NCBI RefSeq assembly: GCF_030684315.1
Contig: NC_081356.1
Location: 101,537,242-101,601,241 of the forward strand
Direction of reading: 5' to 3'
From: Stegostoma tigrinum
Taxonomy: Eukaryota
DNA: 64,000 nucleotides
Part shown: positions 3,082-52,320 of the stretch, one piece after another
Numbering within the stretch: position 1 is the first letter of the stretch
Layout of the letters: each line of letters opens with the position of its first letter
Position numbers and translations under genes: made by a program
The notes under the pieces: generated by a model
What the model was told of the DNA's origin: nothing
What the model saw: the letters and a program-made list of their open reading frames with translations, nothing else
Databases searched by the model: none

Positions 3082-3500
3082 TTCCAGCTCTTCCCCTCCA
3101 CCCACTGCATCCCAAAACCAGTCCAACCTGTCTCTGCCTCCCTAACCTGTTCTTCCTCTCACCCATCCCTTCCTCCCACCCCAAGTCGCACCTCCATCTC
3201 CTACCTACTAACCTCATCCCACTTCCTTGACCTGTCCGTTCTCCCTGGACTGACCTATCCCCTCCCTACCACCCCACCTATACTCTCCTCTCCACCTATC
3301 TTCTTTTCTCTCCATCTTCGGTCCGCCTCCCCCTCTCTCCCTATTTATTCCAGAACCCTCACCCCAACCCCCTCTCTGATGAAGGGTCTAGGCCCGAAAC
3401 GTCAGCTTGTGTGCTCCTGAGATGCTGCTGGGTCTGCTGTGTTCGTCCAGCCTCATTTCATTATCTTGGATTCTCCAGCATCTGCAGTTCCCATTATCAC
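3082..3500 (+). mobile_element. Penelope-like element 3' terminal fragment (pLTR plus tail) with intact hammerhead core at 3376-3403
   Basis: C-rich body, CTGATGAAGGGTCTAGGCCCGAAACGTC and tail TTCTCCAGCATCTGCAGTTCCCATTATC. Same family as 39985-40582, which retains the ORF end. Confidence 0.8.
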
Positions 3501-11336: not shown

Positions 11337-12051
11337 TTCGGGGATAGTACGAACTGCCAATGCTGGAGTCTCAGATAACAAGGTGTGGAGCTGGATGAAC
11401 CAGCAAGCCGAGCAGGAAAGCTGATATTTTGGGTCTGGACCCTTCTTCAGAAATGGAGGAGTGGAAGGGGACTGTGAAATAAATAGAGAGAGGGGGAGGC
11501 AATGATAGAAGTGGACAATGGTGCAGATAGGTGGAGAGAAGACGGACAGGTCAAGGAGGCGGGAATGGAGCCAGTAAAGGTGAGTGTCAGTAGGGAGTTG
11601 GAATGGGGTTTGGTCAGTGAGGAGAGGGGGGTGGGTAGATGGAAGGGAAGATGGACAGGTCAAGGAAGTGGGGATGAAGCTTGTAGAGGTGAGTGGAGGT
11701 ATGAAGGCAGGGTGGCGGTTGGGTGTGTTCCCACCTACACTCACCTCTACAAGCTTCATCCCTGCCTCGTTGACCTGTCCTCCCTCCCTCACTGATCAAC
11801 CCTCATCCCAACTCCCTACCGACACTCACCTTCACATGCTTCACCCCTGCCTCCTTGACTTGTCCATTTCCTTTCCACCTATCTGTTCTGCTATCCGTCT
11901 TCTCTCGCTGCCTCCCCCTCCCCCCATTTATTTCCAAATCCCCTTTTCCTTCCCCCATTGCTGAAGAAGGGTCCAGGCCCGAAACTTCAGCTTTCCTGGT
12001 CCTCTGATGCTGCTTGGCCTGCTGTGTTCATCCAGCTCCACACTTTGTTAA
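11337..12051. mobile_element. Inverted pair of Penelope-like termini with hammerhead-like cores at 11423-11450 (-) and 11961-11988 (+)
   Basis: Arms are reverse complements around about 11715. Flanked by AGCAATC at 11330 and 12052. Confidence 0.8.
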
Positions 12052-27251: not shown

Positions 27252-27410
27252 CTTGAAATAGCAGTCAATGTCTGCGACAAGAACTATGATAGTGAAACTG
27301 AACAAACACTCTGTGAGTCACCTGATAAAAGTGAGCCCAGTCAGTCATGCAGCTTAACTCCAGAAGAAGATTACCACCCAGAAGCTACTGATCAGATTGA
27401 ACTTTTTGTT
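27252..27410 (+). CDS. BDP1: BDP1 exon, phase 0->0
   Basis: cgcAG acceptor and GTAAGT donor. Begins LEIAVNV; human continues EE-LEITVNV. Confidence 0.9.
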
Positions 27411-27658
27411 GTAAGTTAAGTTTTTTGTTTCAAGTTAAGTTTTTTGCTTACTACAGGACTCTTTTTCATAATAGATTTGGGATGTGTGCACTATCAACTG
27501 TGTTACCTATGGCCTTGACTGAATAATGTGTAGGGAAAGCAATGTTAAAGTTAATTCAGAAAATGTAATATTCAACATCAGGGTAATTAAAAATTTAATG
27601 TATTTTGTGTTCCTTATTTGTAAAAATTGAGGGCACAAACCCACATTTGTGAATAATA

Positions 27659-27884
27659 GATAATAAAATGTGAGGCTGGATGAACACAGCAGGCCAAGCA
27701 GCATCTCAGGAGCACAAAAGCTGACGTTTCGGGCCTAGACCCTTCATCAGAGAGCTCTCTGATGAAGGGTCTAGGCCCGAAACGTCAGCTTTTGTGCTCC
27801 TGAGATGCTGCTTGGCCTGCTGTGTTCATCCAGCCTCACATTTTATTATCTTGGAATTCTCCAGCATCTGCAGTTCCCATTATC
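27659..27884. mobile_element. Palindromic Penelope-derived mini-element with two hammerhead cores and a 13-bp TSD
   Basis: Perfect inverted repeat 27658-27851 centred at 27754/27755. TTTGTGAATAATA at 27646-27658 and 27885-27897. Confidence 0.92.
27759..27786 (+). ncRNA. Minimal type I hammerhead ribozyme motif
   Basis: CUGAUGA-A-GGGUC(UA)GGCCC-GAAAC-GUC: conserved core, helix II and GUC cleavage triplet. Activity untested. Confidence 0.65.
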
Positions 27885-28148
27885 TTTGTGAATAATACTT
27901 GACGTTTCAGAAATCTGTAAAATGCCTAAATATGGAAGTTGATGAACATTCTTGTGATGACTATCTTAAATTATATTTGTCTAACCTTGTCCTTGTGCAT
28001 GTACATATTCTACATTGTATTATTACAATATCAGGTATTTCAGAATTCCACATGTAGTGAACTGAACAGTTAATGGATGTTGAACTGGTCTTTTAAAACT
28101 AATCTTTATTTACCAGAACATTGAACTTTAACATTCATCTTTTTACAG

Positions 28149-28185
28149 GAAGTTATTGAAATTGCTAGTGAAGATCTAAGTCAGG
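28149..28185 (+). CDS. BDP1: BDP1 37-nt micro-exon, phase 0->1
   Basis: ttttacAG acceptor and GTAAG donor. Encodes EVIEIASEDLSQ and is required for frame continuity. Confidence 0.8.
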
Positions 28186-32581: not shown

Positions 32582-33246
32582 GTAAGCAAAATGTAAGCAA
32601 AATGTATCAGGACCTGTATTAGTTAAATACATATTTTCTTTTTAAAACAAAAACAGTCTGTGTATTGAAGTTAGTTAGAAACTTGCTGACCTGAGATGTC
32701 ACTGGTTCCTTGCAACTATATGTTCCCAATTGTATGCATGCGTGAGAATATTTTGAAGCTTACGATAACAGTAATTGAAAGGCAGGCATTATAATTGGAG
32801 TGAGTGATTGTATTGACATGCATTTCAGACATAGTATTTACTTTTATCAGAAATGCACCATTTGTTTTAATTGTTGGATTTATTTGTGTTGTAAAGCAAT
32901 TTCCTCATGATTTGAAGTACTTAAAATGATTGCTTTTAAATTTGGAATTAAAGATCCTGAAAAGTAATTAATCGTTTTAAGTGGATATTTTAAAATTGCT
33001 GATAACAATTCATAGTATTCCTGGCAGTTTGCCAGGTATTTCCAGTATGGGAAATGTTGGCGCAAGGAAATGTTAACTGTTGAAAACCCAAAGGTCTGCG
33101 GATGCTGTAACTCAAACAAAAACAGAAATTGCTGGGAAAGCTCAGCGGATCTGGCAGCATTTGTGGAGAAAAATCAGAGTTAATGTTTTGGATCGAGTAA
33201 CCTTTCCTCAGAACTCAATGTTAACTGTTTATGATTTTACTTCTAG

Positions 33247-34474
33247 ACAATGAATCGAAGGACAGCCTTGGTGACTCCTTGCAGCTTCGCCTGGTTACAG
33301 CAGAAACTGATAAACAACGCCTAAACACCGAGCAGATTTCATTTGGGCAACCAAATGATAAGGTGTCACTGTCTGATGAACAAGGGAAATGTGTTGGAAA
33401 TCAAGATCAAATGAACAAAACTGAACATTTGGGTTGTAGCACTGAGCAACTGTGGGAAAAGTTATCAATATTTGAACAACAAGACATGGGGCATGGAAAG
33501 CAACCCAGTAGGACTGAGCATCTGGTTGATGAGATTCAGCATGTGGGTAAGCAGTCATCAATAAATGAACAACAAGATCAATACGTGGAAGATGAAGAAC
33601 AACTGAGTAGGACTCAGCATCTGGATGATGAGACCCAGCATGTGGTTGAACAGCTATCAGTATCTGAGCAACAGAACCAGTGTGTGGAAGCTGAGGAAGA
33701 ACAACCAAGTAGGACTCAGCATCTGGATGATGAGACCCAGCATGTGGTTGAACAGTTATCAGTATCTGAGCAACAGAACCAGTGTGTGGAAGGTGAAGAA
33801 GAACTACTGAGTAGGACTCACCGTCTGGGTGAACAGTTATTGATACCTAAGCAACAAAACCAATGGGTGGAAGACGAAGAGCAACTGAGGAGGACTGCAT
33901 ATCTGGGTGATGAGACTCAGTATAGGCATGAACAGTTATCAACACTCGAGCAACAAGACCAATGTATGAAAGATGAAGAAGGGCAATCGAGTAGGACTCA
34001 CCATCTGGGTGAACAGTTATCAGTACTAAAGCAACAAAACCAATGGGTGGAAGACGAAGAGCAACTGAGGAGGACTGCATATCTGGGTGATGAGACTCAG
34101 TATAGGCATGAACAGTTATCAACACTTGAGCAGCAAGACCAATGTATGAAAGATGAAGAAGGGCAATCGAGTAGGACTCAGCATCTGGGCGAACAATTAT
34201 CAATACTAAAGCAACAAAACCAATGGGTGGAAGACGAAGAGCAACTGAGGAGGACTGCATATCTGGGTGATGAGACTCAGTATAGGCATGAACAGTTATC
34301 AACACTCGAGCAACAAGACCAATGTATGAAAGATGAAGAAGGGCAATCGAGTAGGACTCAGCATCTGGGCAAACAATTATCAATACTAAAGCAACAAAAC
34401 CAATGGGTGGAAGATGAAGACCAACTTGAAAGAGCTAAGCAACTGGATGCTAGAATTGAGTGTCTGAGTGCAAG
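33247..34474 (+). CDS. BDP1: BDP1 large repeat-containing exon (1228 nt), phase 1->2
   Basis: ttctAG acceptor and GTAAA donor. Uninterrupted frame of about 409 codons that bridges phase 1 (32581) to phase 2 (34633). Confidence 0.85.
33507..34440 (+). repeat. Coding tandem repeat array (99/102-nt units, then 180-nt higher-order units)
   Basis: AGTAGGACT anchors at 33507, 33606, 33708, 33810, 33990, 34170 and 34350. Confidence 0.95.
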
Positions 34475-34632
34475 GTAAAAGAGGGTACTCTTACAGTATT
34501 TAACGAGATAATCACATCATTTTGATAACTGCTCAGGGCGTGATTGCACATTTTAACAAATAAATATTTAAAGTAGAATAGATATTGTAGACTTGGTTTT
34601 GTTGTTTGTACTGATGCCATGTCTTTGTTCAG

Positions 34633-35439: not shown

Positions 35440-37110
35440 ATCCAGTGACTTTGCCTTTATTGCAAAAGGGTTTGAGTATAGGAGCAAGGATGTCTTATTG
35501 CAGCAATGTAGGGCCTTGGTGAGACTAAACCTGCATACAGATTTGGTCTCCTCACTTAAAAACAGTACTTGCCACTGTGGGAAGTAAGTGAAAATTCAGC
35601 AAACTAATATCTGGGTTAGATGCTGCTTGGCCTGCTGTGTTCATCCAGCTTCATGCTTTATTATCTTGGATTCTCCAGCATCTGCAGTTCCCATTATCTC
35701 TGGGTTGGTTTGATAGGTTTGTCATATGAGGGGAGAGTACTTTGACAGCCTGTATTCATTGGGTTGAGATCCAACTGAACTGGCAATTCAAAATGGGCTA
35801 GAAACACAGCAGAGCCCACATCTCTGAATGAATTTATGAAATTAAGGCAAGATCTGAAAAAGTAGACTGTGAACGTCAATTTAAGAGTAAATCTACACAA
35901 AACAGTGGGAGTTGTTCAGAAAGGTGTTGGGAAGAGAGTACAGACCTATCATTTTCCTTTTAGGATGAAATATAGGAGCAGCAAGCCCAGACTACCCTGG
36001 ATGTCTAGGAATATTCAGGACTGGATAAGAAAGTATAGCAGGTACAGAGGGAGAAAGTCAATGGTGGCCGTAGAAGCCTGTAGAAAGTGCAGGGGGAACC
36101 CATGAAACCAATTAGGAGAGCAAAGAGGAGGGAATGACTGGTCTCTTATTGTTTGCAACATAAATAAACTGTATGAATGAGAATGTAAGGGGGTTGGTAA
36201 ATAAGTTTGTGAATAGCACACCGATTAGCCAAATGGTTGACAGTAAGGAAGAGGATCTTAGATTACAGGAGGATATAAACAAATTGGTGACATGGGCTGA
36301 TTAGTGGCAGATGGAATTTAAATTTAATAAGTGTGAGGTGATGCACTTTGGGCGATGTCACAAGACAAGAGTATATTCAATGAATGGCAGGACAGTAGGA
36401 GCTCTGAGGAACCGAGGAATCTTGGAGTCACTTGTCCATAGATCCTTAAAGGCAGCAGACAGATTAATATGGTAGTTAAGATGACATACAAGGATACTTG
36501 GATTTATCAGTTGAAATATAGTTTATAAGGGCAGAGAGGTTATGTTGGAGCTGTACAAGAATTTGGTTAGGCTACAGCTGGACAACTCTGTGCAGTTCTG
36601 GTCACTGCCCTATTGGAAGGATAGGATTGCACCTGAAGGGATGCAGCAGCGATTCGTCAAGATGTTGCTTTGGATGGATTGCTTTAGCTACGAATAGAGG
36701 CTGGATAAGGCCAGGTTGTTTTCTTTGGAGTAGAGAAGATTGAGAAAGGATCTGATAGAGCTATATACGATTATGAGAGGAATGGACAGAGTGGACATGC
36801 ATAGAAAACAGCCAATCCCCTTAGTTGAAGGGTCAGTAACAAGGGGCACACTTTTCAGTTGAAAGTCAAGAGGTTTAGAGGCGATTTGAGGAAAACCTTC
36901 CACCCTCTGGGTGGTAGGAATCAGGAATGCACTACCTGTGATGGTAGGTAACCTCAACCTTTAAAAGATATTTGGATAAGCACTTGAAATATCATGACAT
37001 TCAAGTTTGTAGGCCGAGTGCTGGAAGTAGGACAAGTATGGATTTAGTGCAGTTTTGGTGATACAGACTCAATGGCCATAGGGCCTCTTCAGTGCTGTAT
37101 GATTCTCTGA
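35440..37110 (+). mobile_element. Degenerate CR1 fragments with a short PLE tail insertion (35618-35698, TSD TCTGGGTT)
   Basis: RT motif remnants. TSD copies at 35610 and 35699. Confidence 0.65.
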
Positions 37111-38150: not shown

Positions 38151-39984
38151 GTAAGTTTATTGCTGTCTTTTAAAACTTAATTGTCCATTTCCACTCATGT
38201 AAGTTTACTGCTTGAGCTTAAGATGGAGGGAGTAGTTAGCTATCATTGGGTCCAAATCATTTTGTTTAAAATACATTTACATTATGATTAAATACCACCA
38301 GCAAGGCTGGTATTTATTGTTCATCTCAAATATCGTTACGAAGCTCTTGAACTGTGATAAACACATATTGTAGCAGTTTATTACTTACTGTGTGTTTTAC
38401 TGGGGACTTCAAAGGGAAGTTAAGTGTTAACTACATTGGTTTGGGACTGCAGCCACCTCTAGCCTTGAGCAGATGAGGTTGTTCTTTTCCATTTTCTAAT
38501 GGAGCCAGTTATGATTTTATGTCATGATGATAGCTTCATGCTCATTTTTACTGATATTAGATCCTCTTCTGAATTTTTTTTCAAACTACCAAGTGAAGTT
38601 TAAATTCTCATATCCTGGATTACTGTGCTGCAATACCCATCATTAAGGAATTTATATTACATGCTATGTTTTCCTTTCAGATTTGTAAATGACATCTAGT
38701 GTTGTAGCTTTAACTGATGATTATGAAACGATTCTTTGTTTGACATAATGCATCAGAAAATTTTCGTTTTTTTGCGTGCTTAAATTGAATTGTCAGCTAT
38801 CTTTCATCTCTGAAATGATTGATCATTTCAGCTGCGCTCATGATTTTGAATATAAATAACCCAGGCTCTCTCTACCTCCACCTGATCTGCTTTCAAATAC
38901 CAGCTTTTAAACTTAAAAACTATAGGGGCAGTGAAATTTCTCCAATTCTTTAACTGAGGCCTTAACTGTCTTTGTGGATGTAAGAGTTTCCATGAACCTA
39001 TTGGAGAAAGTGTAAAGGAGGTCTTATAGTGTCCTAGACACAGACTGATCACTATTGTTGTGATTATCTGTCATGCCAAAATGGCCTCTGTGCATGTACA
39101 TGCACAAACACAGCCTATAATGTCACCAACAGGACAGACCACTGGAAATCTGTGCACTTGCCGCTGACATCACTATGTTCTGAACACAGTGATGTCAGCA
39201 ACAGCGCAAGCAGTGCTGCTGAGGGATCGAGGATGAATGGGGACAAGGGAGAGGCAGAGGTTGGTGCTAAAAAGGTGGAACTGGTGGGCGCAGCAACAAA
39301 CACCAGTTCCATGATTAGCAACAAGCAAGCATACCAGGTCCTAGCCTCTGTCACTGGAATGGAATTTGGAGAAGGATGGCAGTGGGAGCTAGGCTTCATT
39401 TTGTTCAGTGCCAAGGATAACTTGGAATGCTCTGCATACATTAAAAAAATTTGAAAATCGTCTGAAAACTTTGTCTAAATTTTCCACAACACATCTTAGT
39501 GACTGGCTTCCATTTTCTGTTGCTTACCAATGATGGTTTTCAACTAGTAATCACTGCTAAAGTTGTGAGCTATGTGGAAAGAATGACTTTTGCATTGAAA
39601 GGTGAAAGGGGATCTCAGAGAGTACAGAGTGGATAAACTTGCAATGTTATGAGCATACAACAGATAAATATTGGCCCATCCTGTTTCTTCTGTATAATTA
39701 TAATGCATTTTGCCTCATAAGACTTACATTTCAACCCCATTCCACTGTTGAAGCCTTGTCATCTGGGCTGATCACCATAGACAATTAGAATTCAGATGAT
39801 TGTTCTGGGCCCTAATTAATATCAATTCAAATTAACTTACAAATCTAGTGTAAGCAACAGTTTCAAAACATTCAAAGGCACATAATTATGGGGGCAAAAC
39901 CTCTGAATCATGGAGGATCAAGTTGATTCTTCAAATGCAGAGACATTATGCTCATTCTTATGGATGAACTAAGTGCCATTCAAT

Positions 39985-40582
39985 GTCCATCCTGGGCCTC
40001 CTGCAGTGCCACAACAATGCCACCCGAAGATTGCAGAAACAGCAACTCATATTCCGCTTGGGAACCCTGCAGCCTAATGGTATCAATGTGGATTTCACAA
40101 GCTTCAAACTCCACCCCCCACCCCCCCCCCCGCCCACCCACAACTGCATCCCAAAACCAGCCCAGCTCATCCCTGCCTGCCTAACCTGTTTTTCCTCTCA
40201 CCTATCCCCTACTTCCACCTCAAGCCGCACCCCCATTTCCTACCTACTAAGCTCATCCTGCTCCCTTGACCTTTTCATCCTCCCCGGACTGAACTATCTC
40301 CTCCCGACCTCCCCACCTACACTCACTTTTACTGGCTCCATCCCTGCCTCTTTGACTTGTCTGTCTCCTATCCACCTACCTTCTCCTCTATCCATCTTCG
40401 ATCCACTTCCCCCTGTCTCCCTATTTATTTCAGAAACCCCTTCCCCACCCCCATTTCTGATGAAGGGCCTAGGCCTGAAACGTCAGCTTTCCTGCTCCTA
40501 AGATGCTGCTTGGCCTGCTGTGTTCATCCAGCTCTACACCTTGTTACCTCGGATTCTCCAGCATCTGCAGTTCCTATTATCC
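39985..40582 (+). mobile_element. Penelope-like element 3' end including the GIY-YIG endonuclease C-terminus and a hammerhead core (40457-40484)
   Basis: RRLQKQQLIFRLGTLQPNGINVD resembles the end of PLE ORFs (R..EE..LI..LGT..P.G.N). Followed by pLTR and tail. Confidence 0.8.
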
Positions 40583-41035
40583 CTAATAAAATAGTTTGCT
40601 TTTCCTTTCTGCTAAGCTTTTTTAGAGAATAGGATCAATTTCACAAAAATATGCTTCAACTTTGCTGCTTCATTTAGTAGCAGTGCATACTGGAAACCTA
40701 CATGCCATGAATTTTTGCCTAATTTTACCCCTAATATGTTTTAGATAGTCTATACTTATGCCGTCATTGGAAGTTAAGGTTTGACACAATTGCTGAAGAC
40801 TTTGTAAATAGTTGAATAAGACAAATTAATGATTTGTAAATTATTGAAAGGATTTTATTACTGAAACTTCAGAAATTTTGTAAATGCTATCAAATTTGAT
40901 CCAGTAGTCATTCAAAGCTTAATTCTGGGTATCCTTTGTGTTTTATATGTGAAGTATTCAGTAACAACAGAAACAAGACAAATATGAAGTATTTTTGATA
41001 GAGGAACCAATTTGTTCAACTAGATATGTAGATGA

Positions 41036-41157
41036 GAGATAGTAGGAACTGCCGATGCAGGAGAATCTGTGATCACAAGGTGTTGAGCTGGATGAACACA
41101 GCAGGCCAAGCAGGAAAGCTGACGTTTCGGGTCGAGACCCTTCTTCAGAAATGCTTC
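41036..41157 (-). mobile_element. 122-bp Penelope terminus with intact hammerhead core (41121-41148) and 14-bp TSD
   Basis: Reverse complement reads CTGAAGAAGGGTCTCGACCCGAAACGTC. AGATATGTAGATGA at 41022 and 41158. Confidence 0.85.
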
Positions 41158-49979: not shown

Positions 49980-52320
49980 ACACAACGGGTAGGATGTATA
50001 GAAATAAATGAGTGTGCTATGATCAGCATTACAGAGACATAGTGACATGATGAGCAGTGCTGGGAAAATAAATATCTGAGGATATTTGACATTTCAGAAG
50101 GACAGGATGAAAGAAGGAAGGAAGGAAGATAGCTTTGTTAATAAATGATGTGATCGGAATGGTATTGAGAAATGATATTCATTCGTAACAATCAGTTTAT
50201 TAGGAGATAATTATTTGTGACTAGCTAAGACAATTGAGGATGGTTTCACATTGAAAGGAAAAGTATACATGAAGATTAGTAGTAGTCCAGAAGGTCAGGT
50301 CATTTTTACACACCAGCATAGTATGACTGAAAGAATAACAAAATGGAGGAAATTAGAGTATGAGAGAAGATCAGCATGAAATTTGAAACTAGACAATGTG
50401 TGAAGAGAAAAAAAGTGTAGCTAAATTAAAATGGTGGTCCCTGAAATGATCAAAGTGGGAAATTTAGTAAACAAATAAGGAAATGATATAAACTTTGAAC
50501 AGAGTTTTGTCTTCACAGTAAAAAAACTCAAAAAAAAACTACCCTGGAATAGGGAAAAGAAAATCATGATGAAAATGGATGGAGGATTTAAAGCAGCTGT
50601 GATCACGAGAGAAAACGCGCAAAGAAAATCAATGGGACTAATGGCTGATGAGTTCTCTGGACCTGATGTCCCACATCCTGCGGCCTTAAAAGAAGTGCAT
50701 GTAATGGCAGAGATAATGGGAACTGCAGATGCTGGAGAATCCGAGATAACAAAGTGTGGAGCTGGATGAACACAGCAGGCCAAGCAGCATCTTAGGAGCA
50801 CAAAAGCTGACGTTTTGGGCCTAGACCCTTCATCAGAAAAGGGGGAGGGGAGAGGGTTCTGAAATAAAGAGGAAGGGGGGGAGGCAGATCGAAGATGGAT
50901 AGAGGAGAAGATAGGTGGAGAGGAGACAGACAAGTTAAAGAGGCGGGGATGAAGCCAGCAGAGGTTAGTGTGGGTGGGGAGGTAGGGAGGGGATAGATCA
51001 GTCCGGGGAGGACAGACAGGTCAAGGGGGTGGGATGAGGTTAGTAGATAGGAAATGGGGGTGCGACTTGAGGTGGAAGGAGGGGATAGGTGAGCGGAAGG
51101 ACAGATTAGGGAGGCGGGGACAAGCCGGGCTGGTTTTGGGATGCAGCAGAGGGAGGGGAAATTAAGCTTGTAAAGTCCACATTGATACCATTGGGCTGCA
51201 GGGTTCCCAAGCGGAATAATGAGTTGCTGTTCATGTGACCTTCGGGTGGCAACATTGTGTCACTGCTGGAGGCCCAGGATGGACATGTCTTTTAAGGATT
51301 GGGAGAGGGAATTGAAATGGATTTCACAAGCTTCAAAATCTCTCCTCCCCTACTGCATTCCAAAACCAGTCCAGCTCATCTCTGCCTCCCTCACCTGTTC
51401 TTCCTCTCACCTATCCCCTCCTCCCACCTCAAACTGTGTCCCCATTCCTACCTACTAACCTCATCCTGGCCCCTTGACCTATCCATCCTCGCCGGATTGT
51501 GACCTATCCTCTCCCTACCTCCCATCTACACTCACCTCTACTGGCTCCATCCCCACCTCTTTAACTTGTCTGTATCTTCTCCTCTATCCATCTTCGATCC
51601 ACGTCCCCCTCTCCTCCTATTTATTTCAGAACCCTCTCCCCCTCCCCCTTTTCTGATGAAGCGTCTAGACCCAGAACATCAGCTTTTGTGCTCCTGAGAT
51701 GCTGCTTGGCCTGCTGTGTTCATCCAGCTCCACACTTTGTTATCTGGCATGTAGTGGTTGACAGCATAGAAGCTGAGAGGATGTTTAAAACTAGCAGCAC
51801 AGCTTAAAATGAAGAAGTGTCCTATTTAAGACAGAAATGAGAAGGAATTTGTTTTATCAGAAGTTTGTTATTCCTTTGAAATGCTCTTCCTCGGAGAACA
51901 GTGGAGATCGGGTCATTGAATATATTCAAGATCGAGTTTGTCAGAGTTTGATCTACAAAGTGGTCCGAAGTTTTGTGGGCGCGGCAGGCAAGTGTAGCTT
52001 AAGGTACACACAAAAGCAGAAATTGCTGGAGAAGCTCAGCAGGAGTGGCCGTATCTATGGAGAGCACTTCATTCTGAAGAAGGTCATGAACTCAAAATGT
52101 TTAACTCTTGTTAATTCTTGTTTTCTGTTCACAGATACTGCCAGACTTGTTGAGTTCTTTCAACAATTTGTGTTGTTGTGTATTTCAGATTGCCCACATC
52201 CATACTTTGTTTTATTTAAGTGGAGCGAAGGATCCAAACAAATTTTATAACAATTTTATCAAATGGTGAAGCAGACTCAAGGGGCCAAATAGCTTATTCC
52301 TCTTTCTTACGATCTTGTAC
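49980..52320 (+). mobile_element. Old internally deleted CR1 hosting the inverted PLE insertion
   Basis: ITET / SGPD.PHP..LKEV / MRRNLFYQK remnants. Confidence 0.55.
50708..51746. mobile_element. Penelope-like insertion with inverted terminal copy and 11-bp TSD
   Basis: Minus-strand arm (tail, pLTR, ORF end) to about 51318, then a plus-strand pLTR lacking the tail. GCATGTAATGG at 50697 and GCATGTAGTGG at 51747. Confidence 0.85.

Follow-up and report, generated by a model that had tools for sequence, protein, structure and literature searches.

A perfect head-to-head hammerhead palindrome in a BDP1 intron of Stegostoma tigrinum, and the case for its assembly from two primings

Introduction

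Penelope-like elements (PLEs) leave insertions whose architecture has already been published, namely a tandem of pLTRs, an inverted and 5'-truncated copy, a tail and a TSD (PMC8557442, PMC3846280, PMC8969392), and the palindromes at the inverted junctions are likewise known from print. The origin of the inverted copies and of the one-sided tails is described as unresolved in PMC8557442 and PMC3846280. For rotifer PLEs, self-priming was proposed, and the inverted-junction palindromes were read in that sense (PMC3846280). The protein of an anole PLE was shown to nick both strands and to extend them, and its two RT start sites bound the tail, whose length is the distance between them (PMC11167929). 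The hammerhead of these elements is of a minimal type, described in PMC4209133; as a monomer it is not expected to be active (PMC4209133). What is more, the pLTR of D. virilis Penelope has an internal promoter, which is complete in the 3' pLTR too (PMC2377424), while in L1 an extra 5' G marks copying of the cap (PMC11702581).

Here we analyze a window of 64,000 nucleotides from S. tigrinum, in which a first-pass annotation, made from the letters alone, had noticed a perfect palindrome of two opposed, hammerhead-bearing Penelope termini. We conclude that the locus is a real, young and probably inert insertion belonging to a common class, and we use this class to weigh the ways in which such palindromes could arise.

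Results

The palindrome at 27658-27851 consists of two arms of 97 nt each, which are 100% complementary, with zero mismatches and zero spacer. Taking the C of CUGAUGA as element position 0, the inverted arm (27658..27754, minus strand), which has no tail, and the direct arm (27755..27851, plus strand) both run from element position -4 to +92, and they meet head to head at AG/CT (27753..27756). Only the right arm continues, on the plus strand, into a tail of 33 nt (27852..27884), which reaches element position +125. On either side lies a 13-bp TSD (27646..27658 and 27885..27897, plus strand), the two copies being exact direct repeats of each other, and as the left one ends on the very base with which the left arm begins, the insert itself comprises 27659-27884 (226 nt). 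The anatomy given in the first-pass annotation, that is, 97-bp perfect arms, a zero-spacer centre, a tail on one arm and an exact 13-bp TSD, is therefore confirmed throughout. It had also placed a hammerhead in each arm, and both are indeed present: CUGAUGA, helix II (27767-27778) and GAAACGUC occupy 27759..27786 on the plus strand, with the mirror motif at 27723..27750 on the minus strand. The two sit on opposite strands, however, so that any one transcript would carry a single sense hammerhead.

This motif fits the minimal type, with CUGANGA, a bulged base, a helix II with G10.1-C11.1 and GAA-palindrome-UC; stem I at 27759..27786 is of 2 bp only and helix III is absent. Helix II is paired at 96% in 16 sequences, in which no two-sided covariation was found and the covariation was not above that of shuffles; at the gathering score, Rfam gave 0 matches. 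The predicted RNA fold of the region has an energy of -205.8 kcal/mol (z -28 against 200 shuffles), which supports the earlier suggestion that the hairpin would bury the sense hammerhead. As a monomer, this type of hammerhead is in any case not expected to be active (PMC4209133), and with its hammerhead hidden in the hairpin the product of the insertion is most likely inert.

As for the parent element, the exact 46-nt hammerhead stretch occurs 73,907 times in the 3.2-Gb genome, and it is preceded by the end of an ORF in which RT motifs are followed by GIY-YIG motifs. The parent unit measures 3,528 bp in copy L061, where the frame is broken; its ORF carries the motifs RYIDD (RT) and YIGET (GIY-YIG), and the corresponding Pfam matches (RVT_1, E 0.01; GIY-YIG, E 6e-4) are both below the curated cut-offs. 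There are 1,507 tail-to-ORF junctions in the genome, and pLTR-forming partial tandems are encountered, copies L108-L137 being structured accordingly. Among copies of the parent, partial tandems and inverted copies are the rule, and an inverted partner is present for 57 of the 95 arms from the first 100 listed places. The Penelope-like origin that had been claimed is thus borne out by the order of RT and GIY-YIG in the parent ORF, the partial tandems, the tail and the TSD, and on these sequence features the locus can be classed as a truncated insertion of an EN+ PLE. In the linker from RT to GIY-YIG, the parent ORF (L061:564-1840, minus strand) has a C-x4-C-x2-C pattern, which suggests the Neptune clade.

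Retrozyme-like tandem arrays are also present, separately, in this genome: head-to-tail arrays were observed at G000:C1:49657914 (L126-L128), 104860927, 110519784, 135852192, 140329153 and 165409521, with unit lengths of 362, 329, 293, 336, 166 and 313 bp, respectively, and the one array examined, that of L126-L128, is made of the parent element's pLTR, hammerhead, tail and ORF start. Another family of hammerhead repeats, with a longer helix II loop and GUUAAC past the core, was seen at L221:2331-2372, L225:2072-2113 and L227:2088-2129.

The host gene is BDP1, as an exon at 17018-17431 matches TFIIIB B'' homologs with a best E of 7e-38, the best match being a sawfish protein. None of nine BDP1 exon frames reached the cut-off in Pfam, and the gene was identified through homology instead. 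The hairpin lies 248 nt past an exon at 27252..27410 (plus strand; tblastn to homolog P0001, 66% over 56 aa) and 298 nt ahead of a predicted micro-exon of 37 nt (28149..28185, plus strand), whose splice sites and phase were taken from the sequence and which matches homolog residues EVIE. Judged by this phase, the micro-exon is required to keep the BDP1 reading frame, and the placement of the insertion in a BDP1 intron ahead of a frame-critical micro-exon stands. Coverage in one small sequencing run comprised repeats and a short part of one exon only. Further copies of the same element family occupy BDP1 introns at window positions 50709-51745, 11343-12050, 3091-3498, 35618-35698, 39983-40584 and 41038-41153, two of them being older two-armed insertions. 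Within the large BDP1 exon at 33225-34478 of the window, Q/E-rich repeats are expanded in tandem, and to a greater length than in the sawfish homolog.

In a related organism, one contig matches 26999-27645 and then picks up again at 27885; the 239 bp that it lacks, 27646-27884, are exactly the insert plus one TSD copy. This empty site holds a single copy of the TSD, and its flanks differ by about 5-6%. In the species itself, contigs from two samples enter the element from both flanks. Taken together, the exact empty site and the flank-to-element contigs mean that the insertion is real and younger than the split from the related organism, and they agree, as do the identical arms, with the young age that had been proposed. 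That said, arms identical over 76 nt are found in 11 of 57 minis, as we call the short two-armed copies of this kind, and the locus is in this respect young without being exceptional. It is hardly credible that the palindrome is an assembly or hairpin artefact. Namely, no unique short-read contig bridges its centre, and copy L015 is palindromic deep into its own flanks, as an artefact might be, but such an origin is contradicted by the empty site, by the contigs of the two samples, by the asymmetric tail, by the TSD and by older copies with diverged arms. L015 itself (L015:1300-1730) has the exact junction, tails on both of its arms and a mirror symmetry that reaches 190 nt or more outward from the centre, into the flanks, owing either to a later inverted duplication or to an assembly artefact.

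With a looser pattern, 8,564 head-to-head stumps are found in the genome, and the 26-nt centre junction of the present copy has 1,002 matches genome-wide, numbers that speak against a one-off truncation, one of the outcomes considered beforehand. Among the first 50 stumps listed of the 8,564, the exact junction was seen in 1 and is not clearly the commonest, while with a narrower pattern it is the commonest, at 21 of 66 loci. The TSDs of exact-junction copies differ from copy to copy. In the 14 one-tailed copies out of 15 that were examined, the left arm measures from 41 to 105 nt, and 16 exact-junction copies fall into at least 5 haplotypes, with no 14-mer common to their flanks. The inverted, tail-less terminal copy noted at the outset is typical of the class, the tail being on exactly one arm in 121 of 128 minis, a set whose loci were partly selected for starts near -4. 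In these 121, the tail-less ends range over +73..+110 with a peak at +91/+92 and the tailed ends over +113..+145 with a peak at +124..+128; the TSDs of minis are 4-18 bp long, with a mode of 14 bp. These ends recur in the long two-armed insertions of the parent (RT + GIY-YIG).

The two arms of one copy resemble each other more than chance would have it: in the diagnostic stretch, the arms of the 121 minis differ by 1.23, against 3.0 after shuffling, and non-consensus bases common to both arms amount to 0.32 per pair in 57 minis and to 0.23 per pair in 35 long insertions, where 0.047 is expected. Since the arms of one copy share both haplotype and rare variants, the palindrome is best read as a one-template product made at its own insertion. 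Minis and long copies showed no difference in shared variants (p 0.34), which gives no support for a more diverse source pool of the minis.

Arm starts favour the C at element position -4 (C-4). Namely, 30 of 95 arms (about 30%) start within the 6 nt from -5 to 0, against 4 of 95 from -6 to -50, and the starts of 82 unselected arms crowd between -7 and +45 and thin out immediately upstream. A non-parental base stands before C-4 in 7,339 arms, versus 55,715 that read through, and in the first 100 of these 7,339 listed it is G in 71, T in 25 and A in 4. G precedes 57 of 75 true C-4 ends against 15 of 38 deep ends after a parental C (p 2e-4) and, in one-armed copies, 15 of 22 C-4 ends against 8 of 25 deep truncations (p 0.02); the strictest comparison, 15 of 22 against 4 of 10, is not significant (p 0.24). 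At the control position -6 there are 1,511 purine-preceded starts, with 21 G and 79 A in the first 100 listed, and this excess of A is likely to come from microhomology with the partner arm. In a subfamily with CTTTT before the core, the matching perfect junction lies one base further out (L278, L289). The lengths of the two arms are coupled (n=35), 17 insertions having two short arms, 17 two long arms and 1 an arm of each kind. At L198:1470-1540 and L068:390-545, the hammerhead is duplicated in a short tandem whose second unit begins again at C-4, which shows template jumps at this position.

Copies that read through the tail into the next unit behave otherwise. None of 35 starts within -8..+3, and none of the first 100 listed of 1,298 starts at C-4 with a G, where about 8 would be expected (p about 1e-3, allowing for tandem arrays). 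It follows that ORF-bearing templates do not begin at C-4 and that an RT elongating from the ORF side is not blocked there. On these two counts, an intrinsic RT roadblock at C-4 was rejected, and a full-length mRNA starting at C-4, with minis derived from its 5' pLTR, was weakened, so that one is led either to a separate short RNA or to a boundary of the priming complex. Cleavage by the hammerhead as the source of the template 5' end was rejected as the main cause: 4,469 arms do start at the cut site, +28, but these starts are mostly explained by the self-complementary AGCT, the 30 that were examined comprising 22 two-armed copies (10 of them AGCT-centred), 4 point variants, 3 tandem copies and 1 one-armed copy. 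In L312, L315 and L325, another perfect palindrome that recurs was noted; it has AGCT at the cut site as its centre and is devoid of the hammerhead core, and 13 such pairs occur among the first 100 listed of the 4,469. The TCT (polypyrimidine) initiator has the form YYCTTTYY, its C being the point at which transcription begins (PMC4102762); the start of the CTTTT subfamily fits this fly consensus, and the younger subfamily misses it by one base. A relaxed TCT motif has 4 matches in the last 400 nt. In this pyrimidine-rich region, the sequence around the C-4 start may be said to bear a weak resemblance to a TCT initiator.

Discussion

We think it rather probable that the palindrome is a short two-armed insertion built anew by two-primer cDNA synthesis on the same template, followed by a head-to-head join. 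In this process, the endonuclease would cut the target with a stagger of 13-16 nt, and priming, which we infer to occur from both nicks, would start at about +92 on one strand and at about +125 on the other, leaving a tail on one arm, so that the 33 nt at 27852..27884 would be the stretch that separates the two putative priming sites. Both cDNAs would run off the template 5' end at C-4, probably that of a short capped pLTR transcript, and would gain a C. The extra C would make both ends self-complementary, and the two ...AGC-3' ends, annealing via their terminal GC, would give exactly GAGAG/CTCTC with a zero-spacer centre. Of the long inverted junctions (n=29), 11 show overlaps of 1-6 nt, 3 are blunt and 15 have gaps, and this mixture indicates a mixed mode of joining there. 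One may ask instead whether the palindrome itself is the transposing unit, a MITE-like or retrozyme-like hairpin spread from one or few palindromic masters. The first-pass annotation had held that many copies with the same junction and different TSDs would reveal such an autonomous mini-family, and copies of this description do exist in great number; the stumps would, in principle, also be transcribable, considering the internal promoter of D. virilis Penelope. Yet their outer ends vary, the haplotypes are several, the flanks have no common sequence, and the junction is one of a continuum. What is more, tandem sense hammerheads are absent and the hairpin buries the motif. Fixed termini, uniform length and a constant short TSD, as in MITEs, were not found, the tail lying outside the inverted repeat, nor were the head-to-tail, same-strand type I hammerheads of non-LTR retrozymes, there being one motif per strand, head to head. 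The junction recurs because the arms end at a favoured position and not through self-copying, and a self-copying hairpin appears very improbable to us. More can be said for a single cDNA that folds back, primes itself and copies its own strand, with the endonuclease trimming the second arm, as this would account for the identical arms and for the few junctions with short palindromic extras (L178, L185), and it may hold for the present symmetric copy taken alone. Across 35 two-armed insertions, however, the tail-less arm extends further 5' than the tailed one in 9, the reverse is true in 19, and the two are equal in 7; in the 9, neither arm contains the other or is a copy of it, so that a simple fold-back fails there. 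One-armed copies, moreover, end at about +92 without any partner, and a zero-spacer centre is hard to obtain by folding back, which needs a loop. We therefore hold fold-back to be improbable and synthesis from two primers to be the better account.

Within two-primer synthesis, the end at C-4 can be explained in two ways, of which we prefer a short capped RNA to a boundary of the priming complex. In its full form, the preferred explanation says that a separate short capped RNA starts at C-4, that a dimer of the element's protein copies it at both nicks and that the cap-copied Cs zip the cDNAs together, and in this form we advance it tentatively. Its difficulties are that such an RNA has to be assumed, given that ORF-bearing templates do not start at C-4, that deep truncations are also somewhat G-rich (15/38), that the G of a two-armed copy can come from its partner arm, and that one-armed copies of the CTTTT subfamily show only 4 G, 2 T and 2 A. 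The other explanation, which we regard as doubtful, keeps the same assembly but takes C-4 to be the limit of template held by the priming complex, with an untemplated C added at the stall. Here no special short RNA is needed, and the protein would hold the hammerhead edge in the way that telomerase RNA bounds its template; the passage of C-4 by the RT coming from the ORF side assigns the stop to a freshly primed RT; the coupled arm lengths and the mild rise of G at all ends fit as well; and the anole hammerhead cleaves only with the protein added (PMC11167929). Against it, the excess of G is stronger at C-4 than elsewhere, the end tracks whichever C closes the C-run (-4 or -5) and not a fixed distance from the core, and stem I has just 2 bp.

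The locus itself is ordinary in its genome, and it is the class that matters for the mechanism of PLE inverted copies and tails: its thousands of minimal products serve as a natural read-out, which speaks for priming from both strands, and they lead to sharp predictions in vitro, namely that RT starts at two sites, that the end falls at C-4 and that the join is made through GC. The class also scatters perfect hairpins of 90-100 bp across the genome, the BDP1 intron included. If the short capped RNA is real, the stumps would be footprints of symmetric two-strand retrotransposition combined with a SINE-like class of short RNAs, as well as a large, self-made source of perfect intronic dsRNA. In the open-access literature, we did not find the mini class, the fixed 5' end or the GC join described.

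Compared with known systems, the locus is closest to the published EN+ PLE insertions (PMC3846280; PMC8557442), with which it shares the inverted copy, a tail of 30-40 bp, a short TSD, the junction palindrome, the pLTR hammerhead and a parent with RT followed by GIY-YIG. It differs from them in being 226 bp long, devoid of ORF sequence and one of thousands, and in that the arm starts pile up at the 5' edge of the hammerhead; moreover, whereas self-priming was proposed in PMC3846280, the genome-scale data favour two primings. With the Anolis Poseidon element PAc, as characterized in vitro (PMC11167929), the resemblance lies in two RT starts that bound the tail, in the nicking and extension of both strands, in AT-rich targets and in the lack, in the passages of that source drawn on here, of any sign that hammerhead cleavage defines the template; those passages say nothing about inverted copies, about the junction that these form or about a 5' end that is fixed. 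PAc is a Poseidon element and its ORF starts inside the hammerhead, while the linker of the present parent suggests Neptune and the first ATG of its long ORF lies 41 nt past the tail. L1 twin priming (PMC11702581) is similar in its second-strand priming, discrete TSD, joining by microhomology and extra 5' G, but the two pieces of L1 come from neighbouring stretches of the RNA that overlap little, whereas here both arms copy the same stretch and thereby form a palindrome. Finally, non-LTR retrozymes (bioRxiv 10.64898/2026.07.22.740005) are likewise small, non-coding, hammerhead-bearing and derived from PLE pLTRs. They are, however, head-to-tail arrangements with at least 2 hammerheads on the same strand, and the parts of the preprint drawn on here deal with tandem forms only, while the palindrome described here is head to head, with one hammerhead per strand.
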